DNA of 64,000 bases from Vicinamibacterales bacterium. Its GTDB lineage: Bacteria; Acidobacteriota; Vicinamibacteria; Vicinamibacterales; UBA2999. The stretch spans positions 71,100 through 135,099 of the forward strand of contig JBFWUK010000007.1 in the NCBI GenBank assembly GCA_050247355.1. Direction: 5' to 3'. Below are positions 42,925-64,000 of this stretch, piece by piece; within the stretch, counting starts at the first letter, position 1; every line of letters starts with the position of its first letter. The notes beneath the pieces were generated by a model, which searched no databases, was not told where the DNA came from, and saw nothing but the letters and a program-made list of their open reading frames with translations. Both the position numbers and the translations under genes were made by a program.

Positions 42925-42941
42925 CGCCTGTCCACGGACGA

Positions 42942-43110: not shown

Positions 43111-43158
43111 CTGATCTAACCCATCCTCCGAATCGGCAGGATCTGAGCGCAGCGGTCA

Positions 43159-43178
43159 GGCGGCGATGGCTCGCCGCC
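43159..43178 (-). terminator. Hairpin downstream of the hybrid kinase gene
   Basis: GGCGGCGA-TGGC-TCGCCGCC forms a perfect 8-bp stem 8 nt after the stop codon. There is no U-tract. Confidence 0.35.
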
Positions 43179-43186
43179 AGAGGCCC

Positions 43187-47275: not shown

Positions 47276-47418
47276 TCGTGCCTGACCGTGTTATAGCCGA
47301 AGTGACGCTGGTCAGGTAGGAGGAAGTGGCCGAGTCTTCCATGAGCGAGATCCATCGGACGAGGGATAAGTGGTTCTCATGATGGGGCGAGGCTGACAGC
47401 GGCCAGCCGGCCCTCACG

Positions 47419-49119
47419 TCAACGCGGCTGGCCGAACAGACCGCCGAAGAAGTCGCCCTCGTTCCATGCCGGCCTGGCGGATTGCTCCGCGACCTGCCAT
47501 CCCGTCAGGAAGTTGATCCTGGCATGGTCCGCTCCGGCCTCGAAGTCGAAGGCCTGCGACATGTCGTCGTTCGGCTTGTGGTACACGTCGCGGCGGTAGG
47601 CGGCGTTGATGGCGCTGCCGTCGCGGGCGTCACCGGTCTCGAATCCGCTCTTGATGAACAGCGACGGCACGCCCTGTCGCACGAAACTGTAGTGATCGCT
47701 GCGGATGAACAGCACCTGCTCGGGGATGGGATCCTCGCCAATGGCCATGCCCAGCTTTCTGGCGGCGCGGTTCACCGGCGTGGAGAGCGTGGAGTGCTGG
47801 GCGCCGTACGGCACGATGTCCTTCAGCGGATGGAACAGGAACGGCATGTCCAGCGTCAGGTCGGCGACAATGCCGCCGGCGGGCACGGTGGGGTTGCGCG
47901 CGAAGTAGTCCGAGCCGAGCAGGCCGCGCTCTTCGGCGGTGACAAACAGGAACAGGACCGATCGCTTCGGCGCCGCCGGCAGTGCCTTGAAAGCACGGGC
48001 CAGCTCCAGCACGATGGCCACGCCCGAGGCGTTGTCGTGCGCGCCGTTGTAGATGTCGTCGCCGTTCATCGCCACCCCGCGGCCAAAATGATCGACGTGC
48101 GCGATGTAGACGACGTGTTCGTTCTTCAGCGACGGGTCGGTGCCTTCGAGACGCGCCACCACGTTGGCACTGTCCAGGCTGGTGTGGGTTGACCTGGTCG
48201 TGATCGACACGCGTGTGGCAAGGTCGAATGCCTGGGGCTCGCTCTTCGCCGCCGCTGCGAACACCGCGGCCGCGGGCTTCGAGGCGCCGTCAAAGATCGC
48301 CGCGACGCCCGAGTGGTTGAGCGAGACCGAGCCGCGCAGGGCCGGATCGCCGCGATTGGGTTGTCCCTTCGCGTCGAGCCACGCGTAGTTGCCCTGTGCG
48401 CCGGTGGCGACGCTGACATCCCAGCGGAAGCGCGGGTCGTCCGGCGAGGTGAAGCTGATCGTGCCGACGGCGCCGCGCTTGACGGCCTCCGCGTCCTTGA
48501 CGGCGCCCGACGAGTAATACGCGCGCTCGTTGCTCGGCAGTTTCGCCGGGGCGCCGCTGAGATATGCGACCACCTTGCCCTTTACGTCCACGCCGGCGGC
48601 GTAGTCGTCATATCCCTGCGCCGGCGCGCTCACGCCGTAGCCGACGAACACCACGGGCGCATCTGCGAGGCTGACGTCTTCGCGCAACTGGTCCGCCGCC
48701 AGCAGATAGTCCTTGCCGTAGGCCAGGGTCTTCGTGGCGCCCTTGGACGTCACTGCGAACGAGCTTGCCTTCTGCACGATGACGCTGTTCCTGAGCGGCA
48801 CGCGCTGGCGGAAGCTGCCGTTTTCTCCGGACGGAGAGAGGCCGCCAGCGGTGAGCGTCTGTTCCACGTATTGCAGCGCGCGTTCATACCCGGCGCTGCC
48901 GAGCCCGCGGCCTTCCATTTCGTCGCGCGCGAGCACGGTCATGTGCTGCTTGATCCGGTCGGCGCTGATCGCTTCGAGCGCGGCGTCGATGGCGGGCGTG
49001 TCGATCGACACGGTTTCCTCAGTTGCCGGCGCCGGCGCTGCCGGTGCGCCTCCGCACGCAGCAAGCAGCCCACCCAACGCGATGCCCAGGAATCCATGTC
49101 GTCCGATACGCCGGCTCAT
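47419..49119 (-). CDS. M28 family metallopeptidase with PA domain, lipoprotein
   Basis: LLAACGG lipobox. Zn-ligand regions HVDHFG, GAHDNASG, AEERGLLGS and SDHYSF. Confidence 0.85.
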   Translation of the reverse strand: MSRRIGRHGFLGIALGGLLAACGGAPAAPAPATEETVSIDTPAIDAALEAISADRIKQHMTVLARDEMEGRGLGSAGYERALQYVEQTLTAGGLSPSGENGSFRQRVPLRNSVIVQKASSFAVTSKGATKTLAYGKDYLLAADQLREDVSLADAPVVFVGYGVSAPAQGYDDYAAGVDVKGKVVAYLSGAPAKLPSNERAYYSSGAVKDAEAVKRGAVGTISFTSPDDPRFRWDVSVATGAQGNYAWLDAKGQPNRGDPALRGSVSLNHSGVAAIFDGASKPAAAVFAAAAKSEPQAFDLATRVSITTRSTHTSLDSANVVARLEGTDPSLKNEHVVYIAHVDHFGRGVAMNGDDIYNGAHDNASGVAIVLELARAFKALPAAPKRSVLFLFVTAEERGLLGSDYFARNPTVPAGGIVADLTLDMPFLFHPLKDIVPYGAQHSTLSTPVNRAARKLGMAIGEDPIPEQVLFIRSDHYSFVRQGVPSLFIKSGFETGDARDGSAINAAYRRDVYHKPNDDMSQAFDFEAGADHARINFLTGWQVAEQSARPAWNEGDFFGGLFGQPR

Positions 49120-49842
49120 ATGTGTCGCCCTCCAATGGCTGGAGAAGGATAGCAGGTGCGGGCCTTGGGCGAGCCAGTCGATCGCAGGTTCAGGGCGCCG
49201 CGATCGTCAGCCGAGGGTCGGCGCGGCCCGCCGAGCTTGGCCACCGCTTCGGCGCGTGACTGCACCTGCAGCGTCTCGTAGATGCGGCGAACGTGGGCCC
49301 GGACGGTGTTGATGCTCACGCCGAGTTCGTCGGCGACTCCTTGTACATCAGCCCGCGGCTGAGCGCGGCCAGCACCTCGCGTTCGCGCTCGGTCAGGGCC
49401 TGTACTTCCGGCGCTTCTCGCCGCGGCGAGAAGTACTGCACCAGCTTGCGGGCGATGGCGCTCGAGATCGGCGAGCGCCGGCACACACCTCGCGCACGGC
49501 GTCGAGCACTTCGCCGCCGGTAGCTTCCTTCAGGACGTAACCGGTGGCGCCCGCCTTGAGGGACTCGAACACGGTCTCGCTGTCGCCCAGGGCCGTCAGC
49601 ATCACCACCTGCACCGAGGGCAACACGTTCTTGAGCTGCCGGACGCACTCGATGCCCGTCATTCCCGGCAGGTTGATGTCCATCAATACGGCGTCCGGCG
49701 CGAGGCCGGGAAGGTGCGCCATCGCCTCCTCGCCCGAACTGTACGCGCCGACGAGCCCTATCTCCGGATCGCCGGCCACGAGGGCGCCGTACTCCGCCCG
49801 CAGGCGGGGATCGTCTTCAACCAGGGCGAGGCGAATTGGCAT
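49116..49842 (-). pseudogene. NarL/LuxR-family response regulator disrupted by two 1-nt frameshifts
   Basis: REC domain in frame 1 (MPIRLALVEDD...LMDINLPGM...REVCAG). The linker and first HTH half sit in frame 2 (SPISSAIARKLVQYF...LTEREREVLAALSRGLMYKE). The HTH recognition helix sits in frame 3 (VADELGVSINTVRAHVRRIYETLQV). The frame switches occur near 49476 and 49347, both in short G/C runs. Confidence 0.7.
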
Positions 49843-49872
49843 GGTCAGTTAGTCCGGCGGGTCGGTGGTGCG

Positions 49873-52057
49873 CTATCGCATGGGCATGCGAAAGCGCACG
49901 GTGGTGCCTCGCCCTGGCACGGTCTCGATGGCCGCGCTGCCGCCGACCGCGGCCAGCCGGTCGCGCATGTTGGCCAGCCCGTGGCCGGCCGCCTGTTCCG
50001 GATCGAAGCCGCTGCCATCATCGGCAAAGGTCACCTCGAGGGCGCCGTCGCTCACGGTCAGGCCGATCTTGAGCGCGGACCCGCGGGCATGCTTCACGGC
50101 GTTGTTGACTGCCTCCTTGATGCCCAGGAACACGTGCCGCCGTGCTGTCGCCTCCAGCAGGTACGGCGCAATGGTGGCAGGTGCGTCGATGCGGCACCGG
50201 AGGCCGGCTGCGCGCGCGTGCCGCTCGGCGAAGCGGATCACATAGCTGACCAGCCCCTCCAGCGTGTCGTTGGTCGCGCTGACCGACCACACCAACTCGT
50301 CCATCGTCCGGGCCGTTTCGGCGGGCCGTGGTCGATAGCTCCGCGCGGGTCCCGGAGTCGGCGCTGCGATCGGCCAGCAGCGCCAGATACGTCAGCCGGG
50401 TGCCGATGTCGTCGTGCAGATCGCGCGCGATGCGCGAGCGTTCGCTGGCCAGTGCGTGCTCGCGTTCGAGCTCGGCCACCCTGGCGCGCGCGCCGCAGCG
50501 ACGCGCTGCGCACGACCACGCCAGTGACCACGAGCAGCAGCGTGAGGGCGGCCGCCTGCACCGTCCGCCGTTGCCACCACAACGGCGCCACCGTCAGCCG
50601 CAGGCGCGCCGGTGCGGGACTCCACAGGCCGTCGTTGTTGGCGGCCAGGACTTCGAGCGTGTACGCGTCCGGCGGCAGGTTGGTGTAGAAGACCGAGCGC
50701 CGGCCAATCGCCTCGTGCCAGTTGGCGTCGAAGCCGGCAAGCCGGTAGCGAAACCGCACCCGATCCGGCGCCAGCAGGCTGAAGGCCGTGTAGGCGATCT
50801 CCACGCCGCGGGTGCCCGCCGGTACCGGCACTTCGCCCGCGACGGGTTGTCTCACCTCGACCTCGTCGAGCGTGACGTGCTCGATGGCCACTGCCGGCGG
50901 GACCTGATTGAGCGGCAGCGTCGCCGGGTCGATCACGGCAATGCCATCGAGCGTGGAGAACCACAGCCGGCCCTGTCGATCGCGCAGGCCGGACGGGTCG
51001 AACCCGCCACCCGACCCTTCGAGTGACCACAGGCCGTCGGCCTTGCCGAGTACGATGGGATCGAGGGTCGAGGCCTCGCCGCGCGCGACGGCCTCCACGT
51101 TCTCCCGCAACAGTCGCGAGATGCCGCGCGAGCTGGCCACTCAGAGGTTGGCGTCGAGGTCCTCGATCATCAGCGCGATGACGGGATCGGGCAGTCCGTG
51201 CCGGACCCCGAAGTGTTCGTACCGGCCGGTGCGGCGGCGGAACAATCCCCGGTTGGCGGTGCCAATCCACAAGTCCCCGCGCGAGTCGATGTTCAGCGAA
51301 GACACGAGACTCGTCGGCAACCCCTCTTCCGGGCCGACATTGCGGAAGCGCCCCTCGTCGAGCAGAAACAGGCCGTTGGCATTGGAGCCTAGCCAGAGCC
51401 GCCCATTGGCGTCCTGCGCGAAGCTGACGACGCGTCCAGGCGGCAGGCCATGCGCGGGTCCGAACGTCTCGAGACGGCCGTCGCGCTGGCGATGGGTGTT
51501 GGCCGTGTCGGCGCCAATCCAGATGGCGCCGTCACGGTCCTCGAAGATCGCGGTCACGATCGACGAGCTGAGGCCCTCGCGCTCGCCGAAGTGCCGCAGC
51601 TGTCCGTCGCGCCAGGCATACAGCCCGGCCCGGTCGACGCCGAACCACAGCGTGCCGTCCGAAGCAGCCGGCACCGAGACGCCGCATTCAACGCGCGCGA
51701 TCTGCGGCAGGCGCGGTTGAAACCGTCCATCGGGTCCCAGCATCGAGAGCGGCGCACACCGGCCGCCGGCCCAAATCGTTCCCGCCGCGTCCTGGACGAT
51801 CGAGGTGATGACGCGCGACGACAGTCCGTGCTCCAGGCCGAGCATGGTCACCCGGGTCTTGCGCAGCCGGACCAGGCCCCCGCCGTCGGTGCCCAGCCAC
51901 AGGCTGCCACTTCGTCTTCGTGCATCCGAACCACGGGGGTTGGCGGCAGGCCGAACGCAGCACCGAACGTGGTGCGTGTTGCGCCGTCATAGCGCACCAC
52001 GCCGCCTCCGGTCGCGCGGTTCGCCCACACCGCTCCGTCTCGGGCGCGATAGAGCAC
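49873..52057 (-). pseudogene. NarX-type sensor kinase (Reg_prop repeats, Y_Y_Y, TM, HisKA_3, HATPase_c) disrupted by an in-frame stop and at least three frameshifts, and N-terminally truncated
   Basis: The domain pieces are spread over several ORFs and frames:
- 51848-52057 and 51141-51851: propeller repeats.
- 50238-51140: Y_Y_Y domain plus TM segment.
- 50018-50479: ERSRIARDLHDD H-box.
- 49873-50304: HATPase domain.
A TGA at 51141-51143 interrupts ...DLDANL*VASSRG... Confidence 0.7.
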
Positions 52058-52110
52058 GGATGGCGCTCCCGGTTCACAGCGGGCGCCTAGGCTTCGTACT
52101 GGCTAACACG

Positions 52111-52155
52111 CAATTTGAAAAGGACTGGCTTGGTGTCCTCTCTGTCCTCTGTGGC
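52111..52155. repeat. Intergenic repeat element, copy C (one arm only)
   Basis: CAATTTGAAAAGGACTGGCTTGGTGTCCTCTCTGTCCTCTGTGGC aligns with the copy A right half (CATTTTGAAGGACTGACTCTGAGTCCTTTGTTTCCTCTGTGGCC). It ends on the stop codon of the adjacent minus-strand gene. Confidence 0.65.
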
Positions 52156-52841
52156 TAATCTCCGTCACCTCGCCACAACCGCCTCACGTCGATCGCAAAC
52201 GACCATGCGAGCGTCGCGAGCGTAACGGCAGCGATGACCGAACTGGCGGGAGGTGGAACAGCGGGAGCAAGCGCCAGCGCGAGGCCGGCGAACTGCGCAA
52301 CCGCGACAGCCTTACCCCGAAACGTCGGTGACAACGGACCGGCGAGCCAGGGCATGACCCATCCAGCCGCGACGAACACATAGCGCATCAACCCGCAGGC
52401 CAGCACCCAGACGCCGGCCTTGTCGTGCCGCCACACGAACAGCGACAACACGAGAATCAGGAAAGCATCGACCTCGACGTCGAATCGCGCGCCGAACGCG
52501 CTGGCCAGGCCGGTCCGCCGCGCGAGCCAGCCGTCGAGACCGTCCAGTGCGGCAAGGACGACGGTGGCGGCCACCACTGCCCGTGCGTTGGCCGCGGCCG
52601 GTGGCTCCGCGAGCAGTGCGGCCACCAGCGCCAGCAGTGCGGCGCGGACCATCGTGACGTGGTTGGCCGCTCCGAACTGCGCGAAGGGGTGATGCGAACG
52701 GGCGGTGGACGCGACGATTGCCATCATCGTGGCGAAGATAGCCGTCGCCGCCCAAGGGTATCCGGAGGACGCCTGCAGGGACGGCCCGATCGCCAGTGCC
52801 ATACCCGCCACGCCGGCGATACCCAGACCGCCTGCGACCAA
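52155..52841 (-). CDS. CDP-alcohol phosphatidyltransferase family protein
   Basis: LDGLDGWLARRTGLASAFGARFDVEVD matches DG-x2-AR-x8-G-x3-D-x3-D. It has 5-6 TM segments. The start is uncertain (TTG 52841, GTG 52811 or ATG 52802). The upstream part of the 318-aa ORF is not credible. Confidence 0.8.
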   Translation of the reverse strand: MVAGGLGIAGVAGMALAIGPSLQASSGYPWAATAIFATMMAIVASTARSHHPFAQFGAANHVTMVRAALLALVAALLAEPPAAANARAVVAATVVLAALDGLDGWLARRTGLASAFGARFDVEVDAFLILVLSLFVWRHDKAGVWVLACGLMRYVFVAAGWVMPWLAGPLSPTFRGKAVAVAQFAGLALALAPAVPPPASSVIAAVTLATLAWSFAIDVRRLWRGDGD

Positions 52842-52929
52842 GACCTGCGCGCGAATAGGCAAGGGCGCATTGTAACTGGGACAGAATAGAGACCCGGGTC
52901 GGGAGTCGGGAGTCGGACCGCAGAGAGCA

Positions 52930-53952
52930 ATGAACAGAGAAGCTAGCGCGTTTTGGGTGGCTGAGCCCGGACGCGGCGAGATCAGGAACGAAGAGCTGCG
53001 TGCCCCGGCGGGCGACGAAGTGGTGGTGCGCGCCTTGTACAGCGGCATCAGCCGCGGCACCGAAGCTCTGGTCTTCGCCGGCCGCGTCCCGCAAAGCGAG
53101 TGGGCGCGCATGCGCGCACCGTTCCAGGAGGGCGAGTTTCCTGCCCCGGTGAAGTATGGCTACTCGCTGGCAGGTGTCGTCGAGCACGGCGCCGACGAAC
53201 TGCTGGGCCGTCACGTCTTCGTCTTGCATCCTCACCAGACCCGGTTCGTGGTGCCGGCGGCCGCCGTGACCGTGCTGCCCGACGGAGTTCTACCCGAACG
53301 GGCCGTGCTGGCCGCGAACCTCGAGACCGCGCTCAACGGCATCTGGGACGCCCGGCCGCACGTCGGCGATCGCATCGCCGTGATCGGCGGCGGCACGGTT
53401 GGCATGCTAACGGCGTGGCTGGCCAGCCGGCTCCCAGAGTGTGTCGTCGTACTGGTCGACACCAACCCGCAACGCGAGATCGTGGCGCGCGCGTTGGGCG
53501 TGCCGTTTACCACTCCGGAGCACGCCGCCGGCGAGGCGGACGTCGTGATTCACGCCAGCGGTTCGCCATCAGGGCTCGAACTGGCCCTCAGCCTGGCGGC
53601 GCTCGAAGCCACGATTGTCGAAATGAGCTGGTTCGGCGATCAAGTCGTGCCCCTGCCGCTGGGCGGCGCGTTTCACTCGAAACGGCTGACCCTCGCCTCG
53701 TCGCAGGTCGGCCGTATTGCCCCGGCCCAGCGGGCGAGGTGGGATTATCGCCGGCGCATGCAGTTGGCGCTGGCCATGCTTCGCGATCCGGCGCTGGATG
53801 CCGTGATCACCGGCGAGAGTCCGTTCGACACGCTGCCCGAGGTGATGGCCGGCCTCGCGAACGCGGCGGGCGACGTGCTGTGCCATCGCATTCGCTACTC
53901 CCACCCCACCGCGCAGAGTCCGCGCGGCGGGGACCCCGGGGGGCTTGGCTAA
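52930..53952 (+). CDS. Medium-chain (zinc-type) dehydrogenase/reductase family protein, BchC-like
   Basis: 340 aa. YSGISRGTE...[12 protein letters not shown] in the GroES-like domain and a Rossmann GGGTVGML motif. Confidence 0.8.
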
Positions 53953-54038
53953 ACAACACTGTGACTGGCGAGGCCGAGCCACCTCTCGCCGGCCCAAGGC
54001 GAGCGCTAGTCATTCGCAACGATAGAAGGAGAACTTCG

Positions 54039-54449
54039 ATGTACTACGTGACGGTGCGCGACCACATCATGATCGCGCACAGCTTCAAGGGCGATGTGTT
54101 CGGTCCTGCCCAGCGCCTGCACGGCGCTACCTACGTGGTGGACGCCGAGTTTCGCCGCCCCGACCTCGACGCCGACGGCATTGTCGTGGACATCGGCCGC
54201 GCCGGCGACGCGCTGAAGAAGGTGCTGGCCGATTTGAATTTCCGTAATCTGGATGAGGTGCCGGAGTTCAAGGGCCGGAACACCACGACCGAGTTCATCG
54301 CCCGTGTCGTGTTCGACCGATTGGTGGCCGCGATCCAGCGAGGCGACCTGGGACCCGGTGCCGCTGCCGTGGAGAGCATGCGCATCACCCTGCAGGAATC
54401 ACACGTCGCGTCGGCCGCCTACGAAGGCCGCGTCGGCGGCCAGGCCTGA
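54039..54449 (+). CDS. 6-pyruvoyl-tetrahydropterin synthase / QueD-fold protein with a degenerate active site
   Basis: 136 aa with an AAGGAG Shine-Dalgarno. IMIAHSF and RLHGATYVV align with my recollection of E. coli QueD (FEAAHRL and CGRLHGHSF). On that alignment the catalytic Cys and the third His are both Ala here. Confidence 0.7.
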
Positions 54450-54451
54450 CC

Positions 54452-55507
54452 ATGCCGTCGGCGGCGTTCGTGGTGCCTGGTCCGATCGACACCAGGACGG
54501 GCGGTTCGATCTACGACCGCCGCATGGCCGAGGGCCTGGCTCGCCTCGGCTGGCACATCACCGTCGTCGAACTCGAAGGCGCGTTTCCGCAGCCGGCCGT
54601 CGCCGATGTCGAACGAGCCGCTGCGGCGCTTGCCTCGATCGCGGCCGGGACGCTGGTGGTCGTCGATGGCCTCGCGCTCAGTGCAATGCCCGAGGTGATC
54701 GAACACGAGGCCGCGCGGCTGCGCGTTGTCGCGCTCGTTCATCTGCCGCTGGCCGCTGATGTCGGATTCGACGCCGGCACGCGCGCGAAGCTGGCGAAGG
54801 GCGAGGAGCGGGCTCTTGCTGCTTCCGCGCTCATCGTGGTCACCGGTTCGACGACAATTGGTTTGCTGGAGCAGTACGCGCTGGAAAAGGGACGGATGGT
54901 CGTGGTCGAACCCGGGACCGACCCGGCACCGCTGGCGGGCGGTTCCAGAGGCCCGGGTGTGCATCTGCTCTGCGTCGCGACCGTGAACGCCGGGAAGGGT
55001 CACGACGTGCTGTTCTCGGCGGTGGCCGCGGTGCCGAATCGGGACTGGCGCCTGACCTGCGCCGGCAGCCTCACGCGCGATACCGCAGCCGCCGACCGTA
55101 TTCGCCTCATGGCGGAACAACTGGGAATCAACGACCGCCTGACGCTCGCCGGCGAACAGGATAGCGCGGCCCTTGCCGGCTGCTACGCCGCCGCCGACGT
55201 GTTCGTGCTGGCCACCCGGCGCGAGACCTACGGCATGGCAGTGGCCGAGGCGCTGGCCCACGGGCTGCCGGTCGTCAGCACTACGACCGGCGCGATTCCC
55301 GATCTCGTCGGCAACGACGCTGGCATCCTGGTGCCGCCCGGAGACGCCGCGGCGCTGACCCGGGCGCTGTCACGAGTCATCGGTGATGCCGGCCATCGCG
55401 CTGGCTTGGCGGCCGGCGCCCGGCAGGTTCGCAATCGACTGCCAACCTGGGAACATGCCGCCGCGCGAATGAACGCCGCGCTCCAGAGCCTTGATGCCCA
55501 TGACTGA
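54452..55507 (+). CDS. GT-B fold glycosyltransferase (GT4-like)
   Basis: 351 aa with GGSIYDR near the N-terminus. The C-terminal RRETYGMAVAEALAHGLPVVST is an E-x7-E type motif region. The start is 2 nt after the upstream stop. Confidence 0.85.
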   Translation: MPSAAFVVPGPIDTRTGGSIYDRRMAEGLARLGWHITVVELEGAFPQPAVADVERAAAALASIAAGTLVVVDGLALSAMPEVIEHEAARLRVVALVHLPLAADVGFDAGTRAKLAKGEERALAASALIVVTGSTTIGLLEQYALEKGRMVVVEPGTDPAPLAGGSRGPGVHLLCVATVNAGKGHDVLFSAVAAVPNRDWRLTCAGSLTRDTAAADRIRLMAEQLGINDRLTLAGEQDSAALAGCYAAADVFVLATRRETYGMAVAEALAHGLPVVSTTTGAIPDLVGNDAGILVPPGDAAALTRALSRVIGDAGHRAGLAAGARQVRNRLPTWEHAAARMNAALQSLDAHD

Positions 55508-56366
55508 TTCACTTGCTGAGTGGCTTCGATTACGCGAGGCTGACGATTGGGAGGCGCGATCGCCGCGGCTGGTGCAGCAGGTGGTTGACGCGATCGGCCA
55601 GGTTGACACCTTGCACGTGCTGGACCTCGCCACCGGAACCGGCTCTAACGTTCGTTATCTTGCTGAACGCCTGCCGGGCCGCCAGCGATGGCTGGTGGCC
55701 GATCGCAGCCCTGACCTGTTGGCGCTGGTCACCGATCGCACCGCATCGTGGGCTGCGGCGCGCGGTTACCAATGCGAGGTTCGCGCGACCGGACTTCGCG
55801 TGCGCCACGACTCCCTGGATTGCGAGCTTGAGACGTTGCAACGGGATCTGCGGGTCCTCGACGCCGGGCTGTTCGCGGCGAGGCACCTCGTGACCGCCTC
55901 GGCGTTGCTGGACCTCGTGTCCGAATCGTGGCTGCGGTCGCTGGCCGCGCACTGTCGTGACGCCGGCGCCGCCGCGCTGTTTGCCCTCACCTACAACGGC
56001 GAGTCGTCCTGCTCGCCGGTCGAGCCCGAAGACGAACTGGTTCGCGAGTTGCTGAATCGGCATCAGCACACGGACAAGGGGCTGGGCGGCGTGGCCGCCG
56101 GACCGGATGCCGTGGCGTGCGCCGAACGCAGTTTCATCGAGGTGGGTTACGCGGTGCGAGTCGAGCCGACCGACTGGAACCTCGGCGCAGCCCAGGCCGA
56201 TATGCAGCGTTACCTGGTCGGCGACTGGGCACGCGCCGCCGCTGAACTGTCACCAGACCCACGCATCTCAAGCTGGCGCGATCGCCGGCTGGCCCACATC
56301 GACGCCGGGCGTTCCCGCATCGTCGTTCGCCATCACGACCTGGCCGCATGGCCCGTCAAGTCATGA
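55500..56366 (+). CDS. Class I SAM-dependent methyltransferase
   Basis: VLDLATGTGSNVRYLA (motif I). ATG 55500 overlaps the glycosyltransferase stop (ATGACTGA). In-frame alternatives lie at 55491 and 55494. Confidence 0.75.
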   Translation: MTDSLAEWLRLREADDWEARSPRLVQQVVDAIGQVDTLHVLDLATGTGSNVRYLAERLPGRQRWLVADRSPDLLALVTDRTASWAAARGYQCEVRATGLRVRHDSLDCELETLQRDLRVLDAGLFAARHLVTASALLDLVSESWLRSLAAHCRDAGAAALFALTYNGESSCSPVEPEDELVRELLNRHQHTDKGLGGVAAGPDAVACAERSFIEVGYAVRVEPTDWNLGAAQADMQRYLVGDWARAAAELSPDPRISSWRDRRLAHIDAGRSRIVVRHHDLAAWPVKS

Positions 56367-57235
56367 GCGAACGGCCGTCACCGCGCTTCGAGCCGGGCCA
56401 GGTGCGCGACTACTACGACCGCCACACGGCTGCCTTCGTTACGCACGGGCACGGTGCGGACGCCGGCGCGATCCATCGCGCGGTCTGGGGGCCGGGTGTG
56501 GGCGATCGCGCCCGGGCCATTCACTACGTCGATGAGCGAATCGCGGACGTCATTCGCGGCCTGGCTGAAGCGGACGGGCGTCCGCTTCACGTCGTGGATC
56601 TCGGCTGCGGGGTGGCAGGAAGCGGTTGCTACCTGGCGGCGCGCCTGCCGGTGCGTGTCACCGGGATCACGATTAGCCCCGTGCAAGCGCGGCTCGCACA
56701 GCTCCGCATTCGCGAGGCCGGTCTGACAGATCGCGTGGTCTGCATCGAAGGCGACTACAACGCATTGCCGGAGGCGGTCGGCGTGGCGGACGTCGCCTAC
56801 GCGATCGAGTCGTTTGTCCACGGGCCCACGCCCGACCGATTCTTCGCGCAGTGCCGGCGGTTGTTGAGACCTGGCGGTGTGCTGGTGATCTGCGACGACT
56901 TCCGCCGTCCCACCGCGGATCCTAGAGCCGCGGCCGCGATCGAGCGCTTCTGCCGCGGCTGGCACGTCAACGCGCTCTTGGATCAAGACGCCCTGGCGGC
57001 CCTGGCACGAGCCCACGGCTTCGACCACGACTCCGTCGTGGACCTGTCGCCCTACCTGGAACTGCGCCGCGTTCGCGATCGAGCGCTGAATGCGCTGCTG
57101 CCGCTGCTCAGGCTGCTGCCGGTCAACGCCAACCGGTTCGACTACATCGATGGTGGCGGCGCGCTGCAGGAATGCCTCGCGCAGGGATGGATCACGTACG
57201 AGTTGGTGACGTTCCGCGCAGCCAGGCAACCCTGA
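56363..57235 (+). CDS. Class I SAM-dependent methyltransferase (CFA-synthase / sterol-MT-like)
   Basis: VVDLGCGVAGSGCYLA (motif I) and LRPGGVLVICDDF (post-II). ATG 56363 overlaps the upstream stop (ATGA); ATG 56348 is an alternative. Confidence 0.8.
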   Translation: MSERPSPRFEPGQVRDYYDRHTAAFVTHGHGADAGAIHRAVWGPGVGDRARAIHYVDERIADVIRGLAEADGRPLHVVDLGCGVAGSGCYLAARLPVRVTGITISPVQARLAQLRIREAGLTDRVVCIEGDYNALPEAVGVADVAYAIESFVHGPTPDRFFAQCRRLLRPGGVLVICDDFRRPTADPRAAAAIERFCRGWHVNALLDQDALAALARAHGFDHDSVVDLSPYLELRRVRDRALNALLPLLRLLPVNANRFDYIDGGGALQECLAQGWITYELVTFRAARQP

Positions 57236-57243
57236 AGGGTTGC

Positions 57244-58209
57244 CTAGATCACTCGTGTGACGACCGGAGCACTGTCGGTCGCGCAATCGGTGTTGGCCTG
57301 CGAATCCAGCTCGCAATCGAACAGCACGTCGCCGCCCATTCGGAACACCCGGTAGCCGGGGCGCAGGCAGTCGCGTAACCGGGCCTGCGGCGCCAGGCGG
57401 ATGGCCGGGCGGCCGTTGCCAATCAAAACCGGCGCAATGGCCAGCTGCAGGCGGTCCAGCAGGTTGGCGGCAAGGAACGCCGAGACCGTGACACCGCCGC
57501 CTTCGACGAACACCCGCGCGCAGCCGCGCGCGCGCAGCAGTTCTGCCACTTCGGCCACGCCGGCGGGCCCCTCGGCCACTCCGACGACCGCCGCGCCGCC
57601 AATCTGGTCTTCGCCTGGTTCCAGCCGCGAACGTTCGCAGATGTACAGCGTTGCCGCCGCCCTGTCGGTGAACAGTTTGAAGGTGGGCGCCAGCCGGCGT
57701 CCTGGATCGAAGATCACGCGCAGCGGGTGCGGTCCGGTCACGTGGCGGGTCGTCAGCTGCGGATCGTCGGCCGCCACCGTACCGGCGCCGACCACGACGG
57801 CGTCGCACAGCGCGCGCATGCGATGCAAGTGGACGATGTTGCCCTCGCCGGTCACGAACTGCGAATCGCCGGTATGGGTCGCGATGAAACCGTCGAGACT
57901 CTGGCCCAGGTGTCCGATGGTGATTGGCCGCGAGGCCGTGGCGCCGCAAATGGGCAGGTAGAGATCGATCAGGTCCGCTAACGGACTGTCGGCCGGCAGG
58001 CGCGAGTGCCAGCCGGAGCCCGGCCGCCACTCCAGCACGGTATCGGCGGCTTCACCAGCGACCGGTTGCAGTGTTGAGCCAACGAGCGCGAACGACCCCG
58101 CCCGCCCGTCGTGCTCCAGGCCGCCAGCCATGGCGTTGGCTGCGAGCAGCAGGGGCCAGGCGGCGTCGGCGGCTAACGCCGCTGGCGAAGAAATGCTGTC
58201 TGGCGACAC
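57244..58209 (-). CDS. RibD C-terminal-domain (pyrimidine/pterin reductase, DHFR-like fold) protein with a 90-aa N-terminal extension
   Basis: HLGQSLDGFIATHTGDSQFVTG...LHRMRALCDAVVVGAGTVAADDPQLT...VFVEGGG is the RibD_C/DHFR-like pattern. GTG start. It is convergent with the methyltransferase operon across an 8-nt gap. Confidence 0.8.
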   Translation of the reverse strand: MSPDSISSPAALAADAAWPLLLAANAMAGGLEHDGRAGSFALVGSTLQPVAGEAADTVLEWRPGSGWHSRLPADSPLADLIDLYLPICGATASRPITIGHLGQSLDGFIATHTGDSQFVTGEGNIVHLHRMRALCDAVVVGAGTVAADDPQLTTRHVTGPHPLRVIFDPGRRLAPTFKLFTDRAAATLYICERSRLEPGEDQIGGAAVVGVAEGPAGVAEVAELLRARGCARVFVEGGGVTVSAFLAANLLDRLQLAIAPVLIGNGRPAIRLAPQARLRDCLRPGYRVFRMGGDVLFDCELDSQANTDCATDSAPVVTRVI

Positions 58210-58238
58210 CTCCCATCACTATGCCATACTCATCGAGT

Positions 58239-58271
58239 CTCTTTAACGCGGGTCCGCGAGCCCGAGAAGAG
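58239..58271 (+). promoter_or_regulatory. Second PyrR-binding-type RNA hairpin, sequestering the Shine-Dalgarno of the pyrC leader ORF
   Basis: CUCUUUAA-[CGGGU-CCGCGA-GCCCG]-AGAAGAG. It has the same lower stem and the same CNGNGA hexaloop as the 39099 copy. The upper stem differs by compensatory changes. The Shine-Dalgarno GAGG lies 5 nt before ATG 58278. Confidence 0.6.
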
Positions 58272-58277
58272 GTGTCC

Positions 58278-58337
58278 ATGACCACTTTCCTGCCACCCGG
58301 GCGGCGTACGCCGCACTTGCTCCCGACACACTTATGA
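58278..58337 (+). CDS. 19-codon leader ORF (MTTFLPPGRRTPHLLPTHL) translationally coupled to pyrC
   Basis: It is the only ORF with a Shine-Dalgarno in this leader. Its stop overlaps the pyrC start (ATGA), and pyrC itself has no recognisable Shine-Dalgarno. Confidence 0.45.
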   Translation: MTTFLPPGRRTPHLLPTHL

Positions 58338-59638
58338 AACGCTTGCTCAAGGGCGGCCGCGTCGTCGACCCGGCCAACGGACGCGACGGCATCTTCGACG
58401 TTCTGATCGACGGCGATCGCATTGCCGAGGTCGGCACCAACCTGAACGCCGACGCGGCAGAGGTCGTCAACATTCCGGCCGGGCTCGTGGTGTGTCCCGG
58501 GCTGATCGACATGCACGTGCACCTGCGCGAGCCTGGCCAGGAGCACAAGGAAACCGTCGCGACCGGCGTGGCCTCGGCTGTCGCCGGTGGCTTCACGGCG
58601 GTCGCGTGCATGCCCAACACGAAGCCGGTCAACGACAACGCCGGCGTCACCAAGCTGATTCTGCAGAAGGCCGCCGAGGCCAACCTGGCGCGGGTCTATC
58701 CCATTGGCGCCGTATCGCGCGGGCAGAAGGGCGAAGAGCTCGCCGACATCGCCGAGTTGAAGGAAGCGGGCTGCGTCGCGGTGACCGACGATGGATTGCC
58801 GGTGGCCACTGCGATCCTGGCGCGGCGCGCGCTCGAGTACACCAGCATGTTCAAGATGCCGGTGATCGAGCACTGCGAGGACCAGACGCTGAAAGGCGAC
58901 GGCGTCGCGCACGAAGGACCGGTTGCCGCATCGCTGGGGCTGCGCGGCATCCCGGGCGTCGCCGAAGCCATCACCGCCGGCCGCGACATCCTGCTGGCCG
59001 AAATGACCGGCGGCCACATCCATATCGCGCACATGAGCGCGTGGACCACCATCGAGGCGGTCCGTCAGGGCAAGAGCCGCGGCGTGAACGTCACCTGCGA
59101 GGTGTGCCCGCACCACTTCACGCTGACCGACGACATGCTGGCCGCGCCGGTGGCCTACGACACCAACACCAAGATGAACCCGCCGCTGCGCGAAGCGCGC
59201 GATCGCGATGCCATGATCGCCGGCATCGTCGACGGCACCGTGGACGTCATCTCCACCGACCATGCGCCGCATCACTACGACGAGAAGAACGTCGAGTTCG
59301 ACCGCGCGCCGTTCGGCATTGTCGGCCTCGAAACCGCGGTGCCGATCACGCTCGACAAGCTGGTGCACACGGGCCTGATCACGTTGTCGAGGATGGTGGA
59401 GTTGATGTCGGTGAACCCGGCCAGGATCCTGAACGTGCCAGGCGGCTCGCTTGCGCCCGGCGCGCCGGCCGACATCACCATTCTCGCACTCGAGTTGCCG
59501 GTGACCATCGACAAGACCAAGCTGGTGAGCAAGTCGAAGAACACCCCGTATCACGGCTGGTCGTTCAAGGGCGGTGTCGCGGCCACCATTGTCGGCGGCC
59601 GCACGGTTTACTCCAATCCCGCGGTGAAGCTGACCTGA
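58334..59638 (+). CDS. pyrC: Dihydroorotase (long, class I type)
   Basis: 434 aa. DMHVHLREPG (HxH metal site), the DDG region, and DHAPH near the C-terminus. Confidence 0.9.
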   Translation: MKRLLKGGRVVDPANGRDGIFDVLIDGDRIAEVGTNLNADAAEVVNIPAGLVVCPGLIDMHVHLREPGQEHKETVATGVASAVAGGFTAVACMPNTKPVNDNAGVTKLILQKAAEANLARVYPIGAVSRGQKGEELADIAELKEAGCVAVTDDGLPVATAILARRALEYTSMFKMPVIEHCEDQTLKGDGVAHEGPVAASLGLRGIPGVAEAITAGRDILLAEMTGGHIHIAHMSAWTTIEAVRQGKSRGVNVTCEVCPHHFTLTDDMLAAPVAYDTNTKMNPPLREARDRDAMIAGIVDGTVDVISTDHAPHHYDEKNVEFDRAPFGIVGLETAVPITLDKLVHTGLITLSRMVELMSVNPARILNVPGGSLAPGAPADITILALELPVTIDKTKLVSKSKNTPYHGWSFKGGVAATIVGGRTVYSNPAVKLT

Positions 59639-60261
59639 TGGCCACCAACGCTCGACACGATGAGATCCGCGCCAGGGCGCTCGAAGACATGCGCCGCTTC
59701 GAAGTGGTGATGGACGGCCACTTCGACTACGGCAACGGCTTCCACGGCAAGCTCTATCTGAATCCTCACAAGCTGCTGCAGTGGCCGGCCACGATCTGGC
59801 GGGTCGCGCAGGACCTGATCGACGTGATGCCGGCCGACTTCGCCGCGCAGGCCGAGGTGATTGCCGGCCCGGCCACCGGCGGCGCCATTCTCGCCCACAC
59901 CATCGCCGGCCTGCTCGACGGCCGCCGGCCCATGACGCATCCACCCTACTCGTTCGCGCCGTTCGGCGATCAGGAAGGCGAGCCGACGCTCAGCCCGTTC
60001 TACGCGAAGAGCATGAACGGCCGCCGCGTGTTGATCGTGGACGACGTGCGCAACACCGGGACGACGTTCAAGCGCTGCGCCGACCTGGTGGTCCAGGCTG
60101 GAGGCATCGTGATTGGCACGGTGCAGATTGTCGATCGCTGCGAAGCGTGCGTCAGCCTGGACGTGCCGAACGTGGCGCTGGTCGAGTACAAGGCGCCGCC
60201 GAACTACCCGGCGGCATCCTGCCCGATGTGCGCGTCGCAGGTGCCGATCACCAGCTTCTAG
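59638..60261 (+). CDS. pyrE: Type I phosphoribosyltransferase, probable orotate phosphoribosyltransferase
   Basis: VLIVDDVRNTGTT PRPP-binding motif. The TGATG overlap with pyrC supports a pyrimidine role. The assignment to orotate rests on context. Confidence 0.7.
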   Translation: MATNARHDEIRARALEDMRRFEVVMDGHFDYGNGFHGKLYLNPHKLLQWPATIWRVAQDLIDVMPADFAAQAEVIAGPATGGAILAHTIAGLLDGRRPMTHPPYSFAPFGDQEGEPTLSPFYAKSMNGRRVLIVDDVRNTGTTFKRCADLVVQAGGIVIGTVQIVDRCEACVSLDVPNVALVEYKAPPNYPAASCPMCASQVPITSF

Positions 60262-60265: not shown

Positions 60266-61108
60266 GTGGCAAGTCTTCGCGCTGCGCTCGACACGCTCTA
60301 CACCTCCTACAACGCCGATCGCGTGGTGACCGATCCGGTGTGGATCGTGCACCGCTACGACCGCCCTGACGACCGCGAGGTCGTCGCGTTCATCGCCGCC
60401 GCGCTGGCCTTCGGGCGGGTGCAAAGCGTGCTCAACTCGATCGACGGCATGCTTCAGGTGATGGGTCCCTCGCCGGCGGCATTCGTCCGGACCTTCGAGC
60501 CGGCCCGCGATCGCCGCAAGTTCGATCACCTGGTGCATCGCTGGACCAAGGGCATCGACATGGCGGCGCTGGTGTGGGTGATGCACCAGATGATCCGCGA
60601 CGGCGGCTCGATCGAGGGGTTCTTCACGACGGGCCTGGCCGCGGACGCGATCGACGTGGGCGAGGCGCTGCAGTCGTTCTCGACGCGGGCGCTGGCGCTG
60701 GATCAGAAGTCGGTCTACGGCCGCTCGAAACCCAAGCCCGGAGTCGCCTACTTCTTCTCGCGTCCTTCCTCTGGCGGCGCCTGTAAGCGGCTGAACCTGT
60801 TCCTGCGCTGGATGGTGCGGAAAGACGCGGTGGACCTCGGCGTGTGGACGCGTGTGCGTCCCGGCCAGCTGATCGTGCCGCTCGACACGCACGTCATTCG
60901 CGTCGGCCAGTGCCTGCGCCTGACGAAGCTCAAGAGCCCGGGTTGGCGCATGGCGGCAGACATCACCAGGTCCCTGCGCGCACTCGACCCGGCCGACCCG
61001 GTGAAGTTCGACTTTTCGATCTGCCACCTGGGCATGATGAATGCCTGCGGCTTCGGGAAGAAACAGCGCGACGGGCAGTGTCCATTGCGTGGATGTTGCC
61101 ACCCATAA
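60266..61108 (+). CDS. TIGR02757/DUF2400 family protein
   Basis: 280 aa from GTG 60266. DPVWIVHRY...VAFIAAALAFGRV...LFLRWMVR...VPLDTHV...FSICHLGM matches my recollection of this family. Confidence 0.75.
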   Translation: MASLRAALDTLYTSYNADRVVTDPVWIVHRYDRPDDREVVAFIAAALAFGRVQSVLNSIDGMLQVMGPSPAAFVRTFEPARDRRKFDHLVHRWTKGIDMAALVWVMHQMIRDGGSIEGFFTTGLAADAIDVGEALQSFSTRALALDQKSVYGRSKPKPGVAYFFSRPSSGGACKRLNLFLRWMVRKDAVDLGVWTRVRPGQLIVPLDTHVIRVGQCLRLTKLKSPGWRMAADITRSLRALDPADPVKFDFSICHLGMMNACGFGKKQRDGQCPLRGCCHP

Positions 61109-61162: not shown

Positions 61163-61411
61163 ATGGCCACCAAGACCATCTCGTTGAAAGTAGAGGCATA
61201 TAACCGGCTCGCCGGCGCCCGCCGCTATCGCGACGAGTCGTTCAGCGAGGTGGTGATGCGGGCAACCTGGCCGGAAGACACCATTACCGGCAGGGCGCTT
61301 CTCGACTTGTTGGGCTCGCGGCGCGTGCATTTGCGCGCCGAGGAGTTGGACCGCCTCGACGAACTCAAGCAGAGCGAGTTGCCGCCCGAGGACAAATGGG
61401 CCGAGCGCTGA
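61163..61411 (+). CDS. vapB: VapB-type antitoxin (DUF217-like putative antitoxin family)
   Basis: MATKTISLKVEAYNRLAGARRYRDESFSEVVMR follows the KTISlxxEaYxxL...ESFSevi pattern. It overlaps the downstream PIN gene by 16 nt. Confidence 0.75.
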   Translation: MATKTISLKVEAYNRLAGARRYRDESFSEVVMRATWPEDTITGRALLDLLGSRRVHLRAEELDRLDELKQSELPPEDKWAER

Positions 61412-61794
61412 TTCTCGAGAGCACGTTCCTGATCGATCTCGAACGCGCGCACAAACGCGGCGCGCCCGGCGGGACGATCGCATTTCTCGAACAGAACCAG
61501 GACGCGCGGCTCTACCTTCCGTTCGTCGTCGCGGGCGAGATCGCGTCGGGCATCTCCATGCGCGATCGCGCGCGATGGGAGGCCTTCCTCGCGCCGTTCT
61601 ATGTGCTGCCGCCGACTCCCGAAGTGAGCTGGCAGTTCGGCCGCGCCTTCAGGCACCTGCGCGACAACGGCAACCTGATCGGCGCGAACGACCTCTGGAT
61701 CGCCGCCACCGGCCTCGCCTACGAGATGCCGGTCGTGACCCGAAACGTCGAGCACTTCAGGCGCGTGCCGGGTCTGGAGGTTGAAAGTTACTAG
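61396..61794 (+). CDS. vapC: PIN-domain toxin VapC
   Basis: N-terminal LILESTFLIDL, central acidic residues, NDLWIAATG and TRNVEHF motifs. The first acidic residue is Glu rather than the usual Asp. Confidence 0.8.
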   Translation: MGRALILESTFLIDLERAHKRGAPGGTIAFLEQNQDARLYLPFVVAGEIASGISMRDRARWEAFLAPFYVLPPTPEVSWQFGRAFRHLRDNGNLIGANDLWIAATGLAYEMPVVTRNVEHFRRVPGLEVESY

Positions 61795-64000
61795 TCGCGC
61801 CGCAGAGCCTCGGCTGGGCTGACACCCGCTGCCCGCTGAACCGGCACCAGGGTCGACCCGGCGGCCACGGCGACCACGATGGCCGCAGCAGCGACGATGG
61901 GCAGCGCACCAACCGGTCCCAGGTTCTCGACCCAGTTCCCCGCCAGCCGCTGTCCCCACATCGCGAGCGGGGTACCGACGATTAGTCCAACAGCGACGCA
62001 TCCCGCCGCGCTCTTCAAGACCATGCGCGTGATGTCGCCTCGCGTGGCGCCCAGGGCCATGCGGACGCCGATCTCGTTGATGCGGCGGTTCACCGCGAAA
62101 GCCAACAGGCCATAGAGCCCGATGCCCACGAGGATGGCCCCCAACGCGCCGAACAACCCGGACAAGGTGGCGGCCAGACGCTCCGGCACTATCGACGCGT
62201 TGACCTGATCGGACAGCGTCGTCACGCCGGCGACGGCCCCCGTCTTCAGTGCATCCGACACCACCCGCTGCACATCGCCGGCCACGGCAATGGGATCGAC
62301 GCTGGTGCGGAGCGACAAGCGATGCGATGACATCCGCGGTTCCTGGAACGGGTTCAAGTACACCGTGGGCGGCGCCTCCCGCCGCAGGTCGATGTACTTC
62401 GCATCGCCGACAACGCCGACAATCTCGAACGACCGCACCTCTCCGGTGGGTCTGCCGGTCAGGCTTTCGAGCGAGAGACGCTGCCCGATCGCGCTGCGGC
62501 CAGGGAAGTAATGCCTTTCAATCGCCTGGTTGACGATCGCCACCGGCGCGCGGCCCTGGTCGTCGAAACGAAAATCCCGCCCCGCGACCAGCGGCGTGGC
62601 GAAGGTCTCGAAGTAGCGCGGCGCGACCCAGTTCACCGAGGCGTACTCACGCGCCTCGGGCGCTTCGGGAAAGCCATCGACCGTGACGAAGCTTGCGGCG
62701 CCGGCGCCGTGAATGGGTGTTACCGCACTCAAGGTTGCCGAACTGACCCCCGGCACGCGCGCCAGCGTGGCTAGCAAGTCCTGATAAGGCTGAAACAGCT
62801 GGGCTCGTTCGTAGCCGCTATTGGCGGGATCCAGCGTCACGAGCAAGACCGCACTGCGATCGAAGCCGAGGCCGGTGTTGCGAAGGCTCGAGAGGTGTCC
62901 GATGAACAACCCCGACACGGTCAGCAGCACGAGAGACACGGCGACCTGCGCCATCACGAGCGACGTCCCAAACCTCATCCGCGATCGCGACGGCCCGGAC
63001 GTTCCTGACTCACGCATTACCGGGGCGGGTGGGGCCGCGACCGCTTGCCATGCCGGAACCAGACCAAACAGAAGGCCGGCCAGCAATGACACGCCGGCGG
63101 TGAACACCAGCACGCGTCCATCGAGTTGGGCATCGAGCTGGATTGGTCCAATGAGACCGACGAACCCGCGTCCCGAGGTGAGAATGCCGACGAGCACGTT
63201 CACGCTCGCATAAGCCAGCGCGACGCCCGCCACGCCTCCGGCCAGCGCCAGCAGCACCGACTCGGTTAACAACTGTCGCAGCAGGCGCAGTCGCGGAGCG
63301 CCCAGCGAGACCCGCACCGCCACCTCCCGCTGGCGCGCAGCCCCCCGGGCCATCAGCATGCCGGCAATGTTGCTGCAGGCGGCGAACAGCAGCAAGCCGA
63401 CCACCGCCATCAACACCAGCAACGGCCGGGCGAACCCGTCCCGCAGCATGGCGAGTCCAGTGGCGGCAGGTTCGACGTCGATCGTCAATGCGCCAAGGTT
63501 CGGCGCCCGTTTCAAAGCCTGCTCGACCCGCCAGCGGTCGAGCACCAGCATCTCGGCACGCGCCTGTTCGACCGACACACCCGGTTTGAGACGCGCCATC
63601 AGGGCGACGGGCAGCGCACCGGTCAGGCGTTGACTGGGCTGCTGGAACGCCGGCTCCACCGCGGCCGGTAACCACACCTGCGGTCGCGCCGCGATGTTCA
63701 CGCCGGTGAACTCGCGTGGCGTGATGCCGACGATGACCGCGGAGGTGGCGCCGATGGTGATCCGCTGCCCAACGGCCGCGGGGTCGCCGTTGAAGCGCGA
63801 CCGCCAGAAGGCCCAGCTGATGACCGCGACCGGCTCCGCGCCGGCTTGATCGTCGGCTGGAACGATTACTCGCCCCATCGCGGGTTGCACGCCGAGCGTC
63901 TCGAAGAACTTCCCGACGACATACTCACCATGGACCGGTGCGGACTCGAATGCCTGGCCGCCGACCGGCAGGCGGAAGGCCGACATCGCGATTAGGTCGG
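61791..64000 (-). CDS. ADOP-family duplicated FtsX/MacB-type permease (N-terminus probably beyond the window edge)
   Basis: Two FtsX 4-TM modules with MacB-like periplasmic domains, paralogous to 36580-39033. The ORF is open to the window end. Its stop overlaps the vapC stop (CTAG). Confidence 0.85.
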   Translation of the reverse strand, partial: DLIAMSAFRLPVGGQAFESAPVHGEYVVGKFFETLGVQPAMGRVIVPADDQAGAEPVAVISWAFWRSRFNGDPAAVGQRITIGATSAVIVGITPREFTGVNIAARPQVWLPAAVEPAFQQPSQRLTGALPVALMARLKPGVSVEQARAEMLVLDRWRVEQALKRAPNLGALTIDVEPAATGLAMLRDGFARPLLVLMAVVGLLLFAACSNIAGMLMARGAARQREVAVRVSLGAPRLRLLRQLLTESVLLALAGGVAGVALAYASVNVLVGILTSGRGFVGLIGPIQLDAQLDGRVLVFTAGVSLLAGLLFGLVPAWQAVAAPPAPVMRESGTSGPSRSRMRFGTSLVMAQVAVSLVLLTVSGLFIGHLSSLRNTGLGFDRSAVLLVTLDPANSGYERAQLFQPYQDLLATLARVPGVSSATLSAVTPIHGAGAASFVTVDGFPEAPEAREYASVNWVAPRYFETFATPLVAGRDFRFDDQGRAPVAIVNQAIERHYFPGRSAIGQRLSLESLTGRPTGEVRSFEIVGVVGDAKYIDLRREAPPTVYLNPFQEPRMSSHRLSLRTSVDPIAVAGDVQRVVSDALKTGAVAGVTTLSDQVNASIVPERLAATLSGLFGALGAILVGIGLYGLLAFAVNRRINEIGVRMALGATRGDITRMVLKSAAGCVAVGLIVGTPLAMWGQRLAGNWVENLGPVGALPIVAAAAIVVAVAAGSTLVPVQRAAGVSPAEALRRD

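Follow-up and report, generated by a model that had tools for sequence, protein, structure and literature searches.

Leader-based control of pyrimidine genes by PyrR has been described in several forms. In Bacillus subtilis, PyrR acts by attenuation at a stem-loop (Rfam RF00515) with the consensus CUUU-UAA...GUCC-N-G-N-GAGG...AAGG, in leaders that also contain antiterminator and terminator hairpins. In Mycobacterium smegmatis, Fields and Switzer are said to have described in 2007 a PyrR-binding stem-loop that overlaps the ribosome-binding site, lacks a terminator and represses translation. For Thermus ZO5, Van de Casteele et al. reportedly proposed in 1997 that translation of a leader peptide encoded after the PyrR site prevents terminator formation. 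Here we describe the leader of the dihydroorotase gene pyrC in a Vicinamibacterales bacterium, located in a 64,000-nt stretch of contig JBFWUK010000007.1 (positions 71,100-135,099; GCA_050247355.1; 67% G+C) that we refer to as the window. A predicted PyrR-type hairpin before pyrC buries the Shine-Dalgarno of a 19-codon upstream open reading frame (uORF), and the stop of this uORF overlaps the start of pyrC, which has no ribosome-binding site of its own. We consider it probable, at roughly 0.6, that the PyrR-gated uORF relays pyrimidine repression to pyrC.

For comparison we used 80 PyrC-matched loci (53-91% identity, mostly titled Vicinamibacterales or Acidobacteriota), to which a metagenome scan with the hairpin pattern contributed L081-L089. 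The B. subtilis type involves the same regulator family and differs in its antiterminator and terminator hairpins, neither of which is present in the window leader. The reported M. smegmatis type matches the pyrR leader of the window, the pyrC leader of L009 and 25 of 66 pyrR leaders of relatives. The Shine-Dalgarno is sequestered in the hairpin at the window pyrC leader as well, but there the occluded site is that of the 19-codon uORF, and the pyr gene is reached through an AUGA overlap. The reported Thermus ZO5 type has a short reading frame directly after the PyrR site, as do the window pyrC leader and 38 of the 39 extended pyrR leaders described below. In that type a translating ribosome, not an antiterminator, was proposed as the decider, a form also seen in the outgroup loci L080 and L077. 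Conversely, the window has no intrinsic terminator, its uORF reaches and overlaps the start of the next gene, and the controlled genes are a detached pyrC-pyrE unit instead of a pyrR-led operon. An earlier sequence-only reading of this DNA had not seen such an arrangement described for pyr genes; this was overstated, as the Thermus ZO5 leader peptide reportedly dates from 1997.

The relay type itself has been shown for ppe2 of Mycobacterium tuberculosis, where a B12 riboswitch controls the ribosome-binding site of the uPPE2 uORF (Kipkorir et al. 2024; PMC11260477). The ppe2 gene lacks a Shine-Dalgarno and overlaps the uORF at AUGA, and termination-reinitiation was demonstrated by mutating the Shine-Dalgarno, start and stop of the uORF; tests of Rho left the dependence unexplained (PMC11260477). 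The window pyrC resembles ppe2 in lacking a Shine-Dalgarno and in its 4-nt AUGA overlap with an out-of-frame uORF, a junction kept in L002 and L083-L087. It differs in having a PyrR-type hairpin in place of a metabolite-binding riboswitch, in another pathway and another phylum, and in that the window relay is a predicted one. The leader would thereby combine known parts anew: a protein-gated uORF relay, a detached pyrC-pyrE unit and no terminator.

A predicted PyrR hairpin covers the ribosome-binding site of a uORF

The pyrC leader and the genes and sites to which it is compared contain the following features.

58203-58230, + strand: probable promoter, GCGACA, 16-nt spacer, CATACT (-10 at 58225-58230)
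58238-58272, + strand: predicted PyrR-binding-type hairpin, fold -12.2 kcal/mol, covariance model 34.0 bits
58267-58272, + strand: Shine-Dalgarno AAGAGG, all of it base-paired within the hairpin's 3' arm and separated by 5 nt from the uORF ATG at 58278
58278-58337, + strand: uORF of 19 codons, translated as MTTFLPPGRRTPHLLPTHL, stop TGA at 58335-58337
58301-58314, + strand: inner hairpin GCGGC-GUAC-GCCGC, -9.8 kcal/mol, starting 23 nt after the uORF AUG
58315-58333, + strand: G-poor, CA-rich tract ACUUGCUCCCGACACACUU before pyrC, without a Shine-Dalgarno
58334-59638, + strand: pyrC, dihydroorotase of 434 aa (Pfam Amidohydro_1 and DHOase; NCBIfam TIGR00857, 427 bits against a cut-off of 279)
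39097-39134, + strand: first PyrR hairpin, whose Shine-Dalgarno directly serves pyrR (ATG 39139), here called the direct design

The regulated ribosome-binding site belongs to the uORF. Anti-Shine-Dalgarno pairing before the uORF amounts to -7.1 kcal/mol, identical to that before pyrR, and the spacing from Shine-Dalgarno to AUG equals that at pyrR of the same genome (leader 39097-39141). Before pyrC the value is +0.4 kcal/mol, at about the 95th percentile of random 18-mers drawn from the window, which places it with the 5-6% that least resemble a Shine-Dalgarno. The pyrC start (ATG 58334, MKRLLKGGRVVDP...) lies 56 nt beyond the uORF ATG in a different frame, and together with the uORF stop gives the ATGA junction. 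In these respects the sequence-only reading was borne out: the buried Shine-Dalgarno serves the uORF, the uORF terminates over the start of pyrC, and a Shine-Dalgarno is missing there. The position of this start also held up, as no alternative in-frame upstream start is present and the start column reads ATG, GTG or TTG ahead of a conserved MKRLLKGG in most of the ~78 relatives with upstream sequence. A TGA is usually present at the ATGA position because most relatives have Lys (AAR) as the second codon of pyrC; the uORF is distinguished at this overlap by its phase and not by the presence of TGA.

The hairpin pairs UCUCUUU with GAAGAGG in the lower stem and CGGGU with GCCCG in the upper stem, around a CCGCGA loop. 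It precedes pyrimidine genes as part of their 5' leader, and the same genome carries a pyrR gene (39139-39675) whose product passes the equivalog cut-off. We predict it to be a PyrR site by its membership of a family of pyrR-leader hairpins and not by Rfam. A covariance model was trained on 44 aligned pyrR-leader hairpins of relatives, with zero pyrC-type hairpins included; in this alignment 96.8% of the cells were paired and four pairs had compensatory changes, which was reached by 0 of 500 shuffles. Over the 64 kb, the model returned two significant matches, namely the pyrR leader (57.9 bits, a member of the training set) and positions 58237-58273 (34.0 bits, E = 5e-8), and the next-ranked match had an E-value of 0.45. 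Across 89 loci there was one hairpin site per locus, always before pyrR or pyrC. The features of the RF00515 binding stem-loop (CUUU/AAG lower stem, UAA bulge, upper stem and C-N-G-N-G-A loop) were found as well. At its gathering threshold of 54 bits, RF00515 matched neither the window nor any of 12 related loci. Its sub-threshold alignments, to pyrR leaders only, map their hairpins to the binding stem-loop at model positions 1-45 (31.1 bits, E = 0.004, in L020; 18.3 bits for the window pyrR hairpin).

In all pyrC-type leaders a -10-like hexamer (CATACT, TATACT or TATAAT) precedes the hairpin by 7-12 nt, so the mRNA probably begins with this structure. The window transcript would probably start at ~58236-58238. 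A consensus promoter scan found no promoter at the pyrC leader.

The inner hairpin, which the sequence-only reading had rightly recognised but placed one base off (about 58300-58313), has a 5-bp stem and is followed by ACUUGCUCCC, without a U tract. A terminator scan of 58050-58500 found no terminator-like site, which rules out an intrinsic attenuator of the Bacillus or Thermus type for the window. The leader is less well folded than 196 of 200 shuffles, and folding the whole leader by minimum free energy gave a diffuse ensemble, in which nothing competed convincingly with the two hairpins. In an RNAalifold analysis of nine leaders, GUGU at 58272-58275, in the gap from the Shine-Dalgarno to the uORF AUG, paired with ACAC at 58326-58329, 5 nt before the pyrC AUG. 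This helix of 4 bp, with a single compensatory change in L005 and a single break in L084, is weak and too short to call. An open reading frame at 57924-58337, in the same frame as the uORF, is a mechanical extension that crosses the divergent gene and the probable promoter.

Phase and length of the uORF are kept in pyrC leaders

Only three of the 80 species genomes (L002, L005 and L009) have the hairpin before pyrC. Among the seven complete intact leaders of the uORF type, six have the ATGA junction together with a uORF of 19-20 codons (the window, L002, L083, L084, L085 and L086). The uORF has 19 codons in L083-L087 and 20 in L002, the latter by an in-frame 3-nt insertion. L087 also retains the ATGA junction and was left out of the count because its pyrC runs off the contig end. 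In L005 the spacer is 1 nt shorter and the uORF stops at the TAA of CTTAAG, 17 nt into pyrC, where relatives with adjoining pyrB and pyrC, such as L007, have their pyrB stop. Phase is kept through the insertion in L002, and the one-base difference in L005 is matched by a nearby stop. A Shine-Dalgarno before pyrC is absent from every relative of the uORF type, and the CA-rich ACACAC tract in this position is conserved.

The peptide, by comparison, seems unconstrained. Variable columns at codon positions 1, 2 and 3 number 12, 13 and 11 in the uORF versus 7, 2 and 11 in pyrC, so the uORF shows no third-position bias. This comparison of leaders, which the sequence-only reading had proposed, indicates that length and phase of the uORF are kept and its peptide is not, and that phase is the property under selection.

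uORFs in one phase follow the hairpin in pyrR leaders

The 66 pyrR leaders with a recognisable hairpin comprise 25 of the direct design, as in the window, and 41 extended ones. About 60% of the Vicinamibacteria pyrR leaders (L007-L075, ~1300-1560 per locus) have a uORF of 11-53 codons between the hairpin and pyrR. In 38 of 39 extended Vicinamibacteria leaders a start codon is found at the usual Shine-Dalgarno distance and opens a uORF in one phase; a GTG start was chosen to fit the phase in L059 and L063, and L033, whose leader is extended, lacks an obvious start codon. Of the distinct spacer lengths (26-149 nt), 21 of 22 equal 2 mod 3 (p = 1.4e-9), and the uORF frame contains one stop, compared to 26 and 10 in the remaining frames (p = 6e-6). 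Counted from the first base of the pyrR start, most of these uORFs end at +10 or +13, with exceptions that end at +16, overlap the start as TAATG or abut it (one each). The design of hairpin, uORF and overlap is general in Vicinamibacteria. Close relatives can differ in form, L039 and L044 being direct and their respective counterparts L046 and L024 extended.

The uORFs of pyrR leaders have no sequence in common with one another or with the window uORF. A pyrR-leader uORF such as that of L015 was rejected as the ancestor of the pyrC uORF (similarity z<2), the position of the hairpin alone being in common. The long uORFs of L023, L029, L036, L043 and L074 contain short, C-rich, tandem-like repeats in which the reading phase is retained, for example ACCCGATT repeated in L029 and three CGTCCGCGTGAGCGGACG-like hairpin copies in L023.

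The pyrC-pyrE unit is detached from pyrR-pyrB

The other pyrimidine genes of the window and the last gene of the conserved cluster are listed here.

39139-39675, + strand: pyrR (NCBIfam PyrR equivalog, 250 bits against a cut-off of 138)
39679-40650, + strand: pyrB (Pfam OTCace)
59638-60261, + strand: probable pyrE, orotate phosphoribosyltransferase-like (Pfam Pribosyltran)
60266-61108, + strand: DUF2400 gene with an inferred GTG start (Pfam PF09674, 2.9e-68), in pyrC-pyrE-DUF2400 synteny in relatives

The pyrE candidate has pyrE_Therm as its top NCBIfam match (76 bits, under the cut-off of 150); its start overlaps the pyrC stop as TGATG (59638), and relatives also have pyrE 3' of pyrC. The usual order in relatives is a contiguous pyrR-pyrB-pyrC-pyrE-DUF2400, with the DUF2400 gene as the final conserved member. 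In the window lineage this operon is split: pyrR-pyrB, the other half of the ancestral pyrR-pyrB-pyrC-pyrE operon, lies 17.7 kb upstream of pyrC on the same strand. In L009, ~2.7 kb separate pyrB and pyrC.

Where the genes adjoin, pyrB and pyrC overlap by 17 nt (~position 3001 in L001, L003, L004, L007-L008, L010-L020 and many others). Read in frame, as in L007, the pyrB stop is the TAA within pyrC codons 5-6 (CTT AAG), and CTTAAG recurs at these codons in most relatives. Codons 5-6 read CTC AAG in the window, L002 and L009 and TTC AAG in L084; in all four pyrC is detached from pyrB, and accordingly this TAA is missing. L005 retains the TAA at codons 5-6, yet its pyrC is detached.

The ~17.7 kb between pyrB and pyrC (window 40651-58200) has no counterpart in this place in relatives. 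It includes a GTP cyclohydrolase II gene (40711-41361), a sulfatase-like gene, a glycosyltransferase, two methyltransferases, a 1362-aa PAS/GAF hybrid histidine kinase (43187-47275, minus strand), a 6-pyruvoyl-tetrahydropterin-synthase-domain gene and a RibD_C gene divergent from pyrC. Downstream of the DUF2400 gene, two small overlapping open reading frames of 82 and 132 aa (61163-61794, + strand) look like an antitoxin and a PIN-domain toxin, judged from their translations only. The pyr regions are flanked by two large duplicated permease genes of the MacB_PCD/FtsX type, at 36580-39033 (+) and 61791-63986 (-). Such duplicated permeases are typical of Acidobacteriota.

A probable relay from PyrR to pyrC

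In the mechanism that we favour, plentiful pyrimidine nucleotides would cause PyrR, with UMP or UTP, to lock the hairpin and block initiation at the uORF, by analogy with translational repression by PyrR in Mycobacterium. Otherwise, as the anatomy and conservation of the leader suggest, pyrC would be translated mainly by ribosomes that terminate at the uORF UGA and reinitiate at the overlapping AUG, because pyrC lacks a Shine-Dalgarno and overlaps the uORF stop at AUGA. Translation of pyrE would follow through its own overlap with pyrC. The uORF peptide would have no role, selection acting on the start context, the phase, the C-rich and G-poor composition and the small hairpin at +23. A second layer of control is likely, in which the untranslated C-rich leader is exposed to Rho or to pausing at the inner hairpin, so that loss of uORF translation would also reduce transcription. 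As for its origin, pyrC is translationally coupled to pyrB in relatives, and the uORF has probably replaced pyrB as the feeder cistron after the split. Once ~17.7 kb had come to separate pyrB from pyrC, this feeder would have stood under a PyrR site of its own.

Several observations weigh against this reading. The pyrC hairpin itself has no RF00515 match, even at E<=10. L009, with 85% PyrC identity, has no uORF, and its hairpin, Shine-Dalgarno and ATG belong directly to pyrC. The uORF is therefore dispensable, though not shown to be idle, and L009 together with the 25 direct leaders among the 66 of pyrR shows that PyrR control does not require a uORF. The idea of the sequence-only reading that PyrR control is relayed through a leader peptide is supported by the conserved length and phase and by the design of 38 of 39 extended pyrR leaders, and qualified by a close relative that keeps its pyrC start and manages without the uORF. 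Most extended pyrR leaders, unlike pyrC leaders, retain GGAGG or GAGGT before pyrR, so pure reinitiation is not the general rule of the family. The pyrC-type leaders are closely related, and phase conservation is tested by only ~3 independent events. Finally, pyrC may be initiated without a Shine-Dalgarno and independently of the uORF, on the unstructured CA-rich leader.

This last point leads to an account in which the uORF acts by attenuation or polarity only. Ribosomes on the uORF would shield a Rho-loading leader, or would disrupt or release a pause at the inner hairpin, and pyrC would start independently on the CA-rich tract. A PyrR block of the uORF would then stop transcription before or within pyrC. 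The composition of the leaders fits such a role. The window uORF has a C-G skew of +0.37, in the top 0.5% of window segments, and 39 of 41 extended pyrR leaders are likewise C-rich and G-poor; the mean (C-G)/(C+G) is +0.24 in pyrR-leader uORFs versus -0.01 in adjacent coding sequence (p = 8e-8). An excess of C over G is the feature given as characteristic of Rut sites, and a putative one has been reported in pyrR of M. tuberculosis (PMC13650167). Hairpins of -8 kcal/mol or stronger start at +18 to +29 from the uORF AUG in 13 of the 15 leaders that have one, in about ten unrelated sequences. The outgroups are also consistent with this role: L080 (candidate division B38, 1378-1525) and L077 (Geoalkalibacter, 1321-1490) have a PyrR hairpin, a uORF of 28-35 codons and then pyrR with its own Shine-Dalgarno. 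In L080 the uORF holds a stem, which the scan calls terminator-like, and then seven U; the seven-U run in the L077 uORF is preceded by a stem read by eye only. The layout of L080 resembles the attenuator proposed for Thermus, that of L077 less clearly so. The Shine-Dalgarno retained by extended pyrR leaders agrees with independent initiation too. However, the window leader contains neither a U tract nor a terminator-like site, and polarity would need neither the exact ATGA junction nor the missing Shine-Dalgarno of pyrC. Rho, moreover, did not account for the uORF dependence of the ppe2 precedent (PMC11260477). We think it unlikely that polarity alone explains the leader, and such an effect is compatible with the relay, not exclusive of it.

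The leader might instead be an evolutionary leftover, a module of hairpin, Shine-Dalgarno and ATG that landed before pyrC after the split. The uORF would be translated but irrelevant, or PyrR control weak or absent, and pyrC would be expressed by initiation without a Shine-Dalgarno. The loss of the uORF in L009 and its freely evolving peptide agree with this. So do two metagenome contigs, L081 (206-353) and L082 (386-1226, minus strand), in which the leader and uORF are intact and the pyrC ATG has become ATA. Their PyrC matches span residues 1-17 and 1-248, respectively; we rejected them as support for non-AUG reinitiation, treated these truncated copies as pseudogenes and did not count them. 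Their intact leaders imply that intactness alone is no proof of function. A neighbour-joining tree also intersperses lineages with and without a separate pyrC leader, in a clade that is shallow and poorly resolved. Against this, the hairpin is conserved far above its flanks, with 7 of 40 variable columns versus 36 of 54 in the uORF of pyrC-type leaders. The phase has persisted through the in-frame insertion, the one-base change in length is met by a nearby stop, and phase is conserved in parallel in pyrR leaders (p ~1e-9). The inner stem is conserved and its loop variable, with 1 of 10 and 4 of 4 variable columns, compared to 31 of 40 in the remaining uORF. A leftover is an improbable explanation of the leader.

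A sensor peptide, whether a micropeptide with a function or one that tunes pyrC by stalling at Pro-Pro-Gly, seems very improbable. The window does encode PPG, listed by the sequence-only reading as a stalling motif, and the Arg and Pro codons of the inner stem are conserved. The stalling motif was rejected because it is not conserved: PPG is confined to the window, and relatives carry PLG, PLE, PSG, SPG or PPA. Substitutions are spread evenly over the codon positions, and the conserved Arg and Pro codons coincide with the hairpin stem, third positions included, whereas the loop codons change amino acid freely. An assembly frameshift concealing an N-terminal extension of PyrC from 58278, for which nothing speaks except the closeness of the two ATGs, is effectively refuted by the same out-of-frame layout in six independent contigs and by the conserved PyrC N-terminus, as MKRLLKGG starts at one column in most relatives and in many directly at the pyrB end.

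Significance for pyrimidine regulation in Acidobacteriota

If the relay operates as proposed, the window pyrC leader would offer a natural example of an RNA-binding repressor that targets a decoy reading frame rather than the gene under its control. It would tie together translational repression by PyrR, the leader-peptide model proposed for Thermus and the demonstrated relay from riboswitch to uORF. The comparative evidence for uORF translation is unusually clean, with 21 of 22 spacer lengths in one phase. The locus also suggests a route by which a gene severed from its operon may regain regulation, a short feeder reading frame replacing the translationally coupled upstream cistron. Pyrimidine regulons of Acidobacteriota are under-annotated because the Rfam PyrR model misses the sites and gene callers miss the uORFs.

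More tentatively, and with the balance leaning somewhat against it, Vicinamibacteria may possess a widespread and so far undescribed class of PyrR-gated leader uORFs that pass on control by reinitiation and by shielding from Rho. Only phase, composition and an optional hairpin at +18-29 would be selected in this class, which would be interchangeable with the direct form and would have been reused to recapture pyrC-pyrE once the operon had split. If true, the 1997 Thermus proposal would be no oddity but one end of a broad, evolving family.

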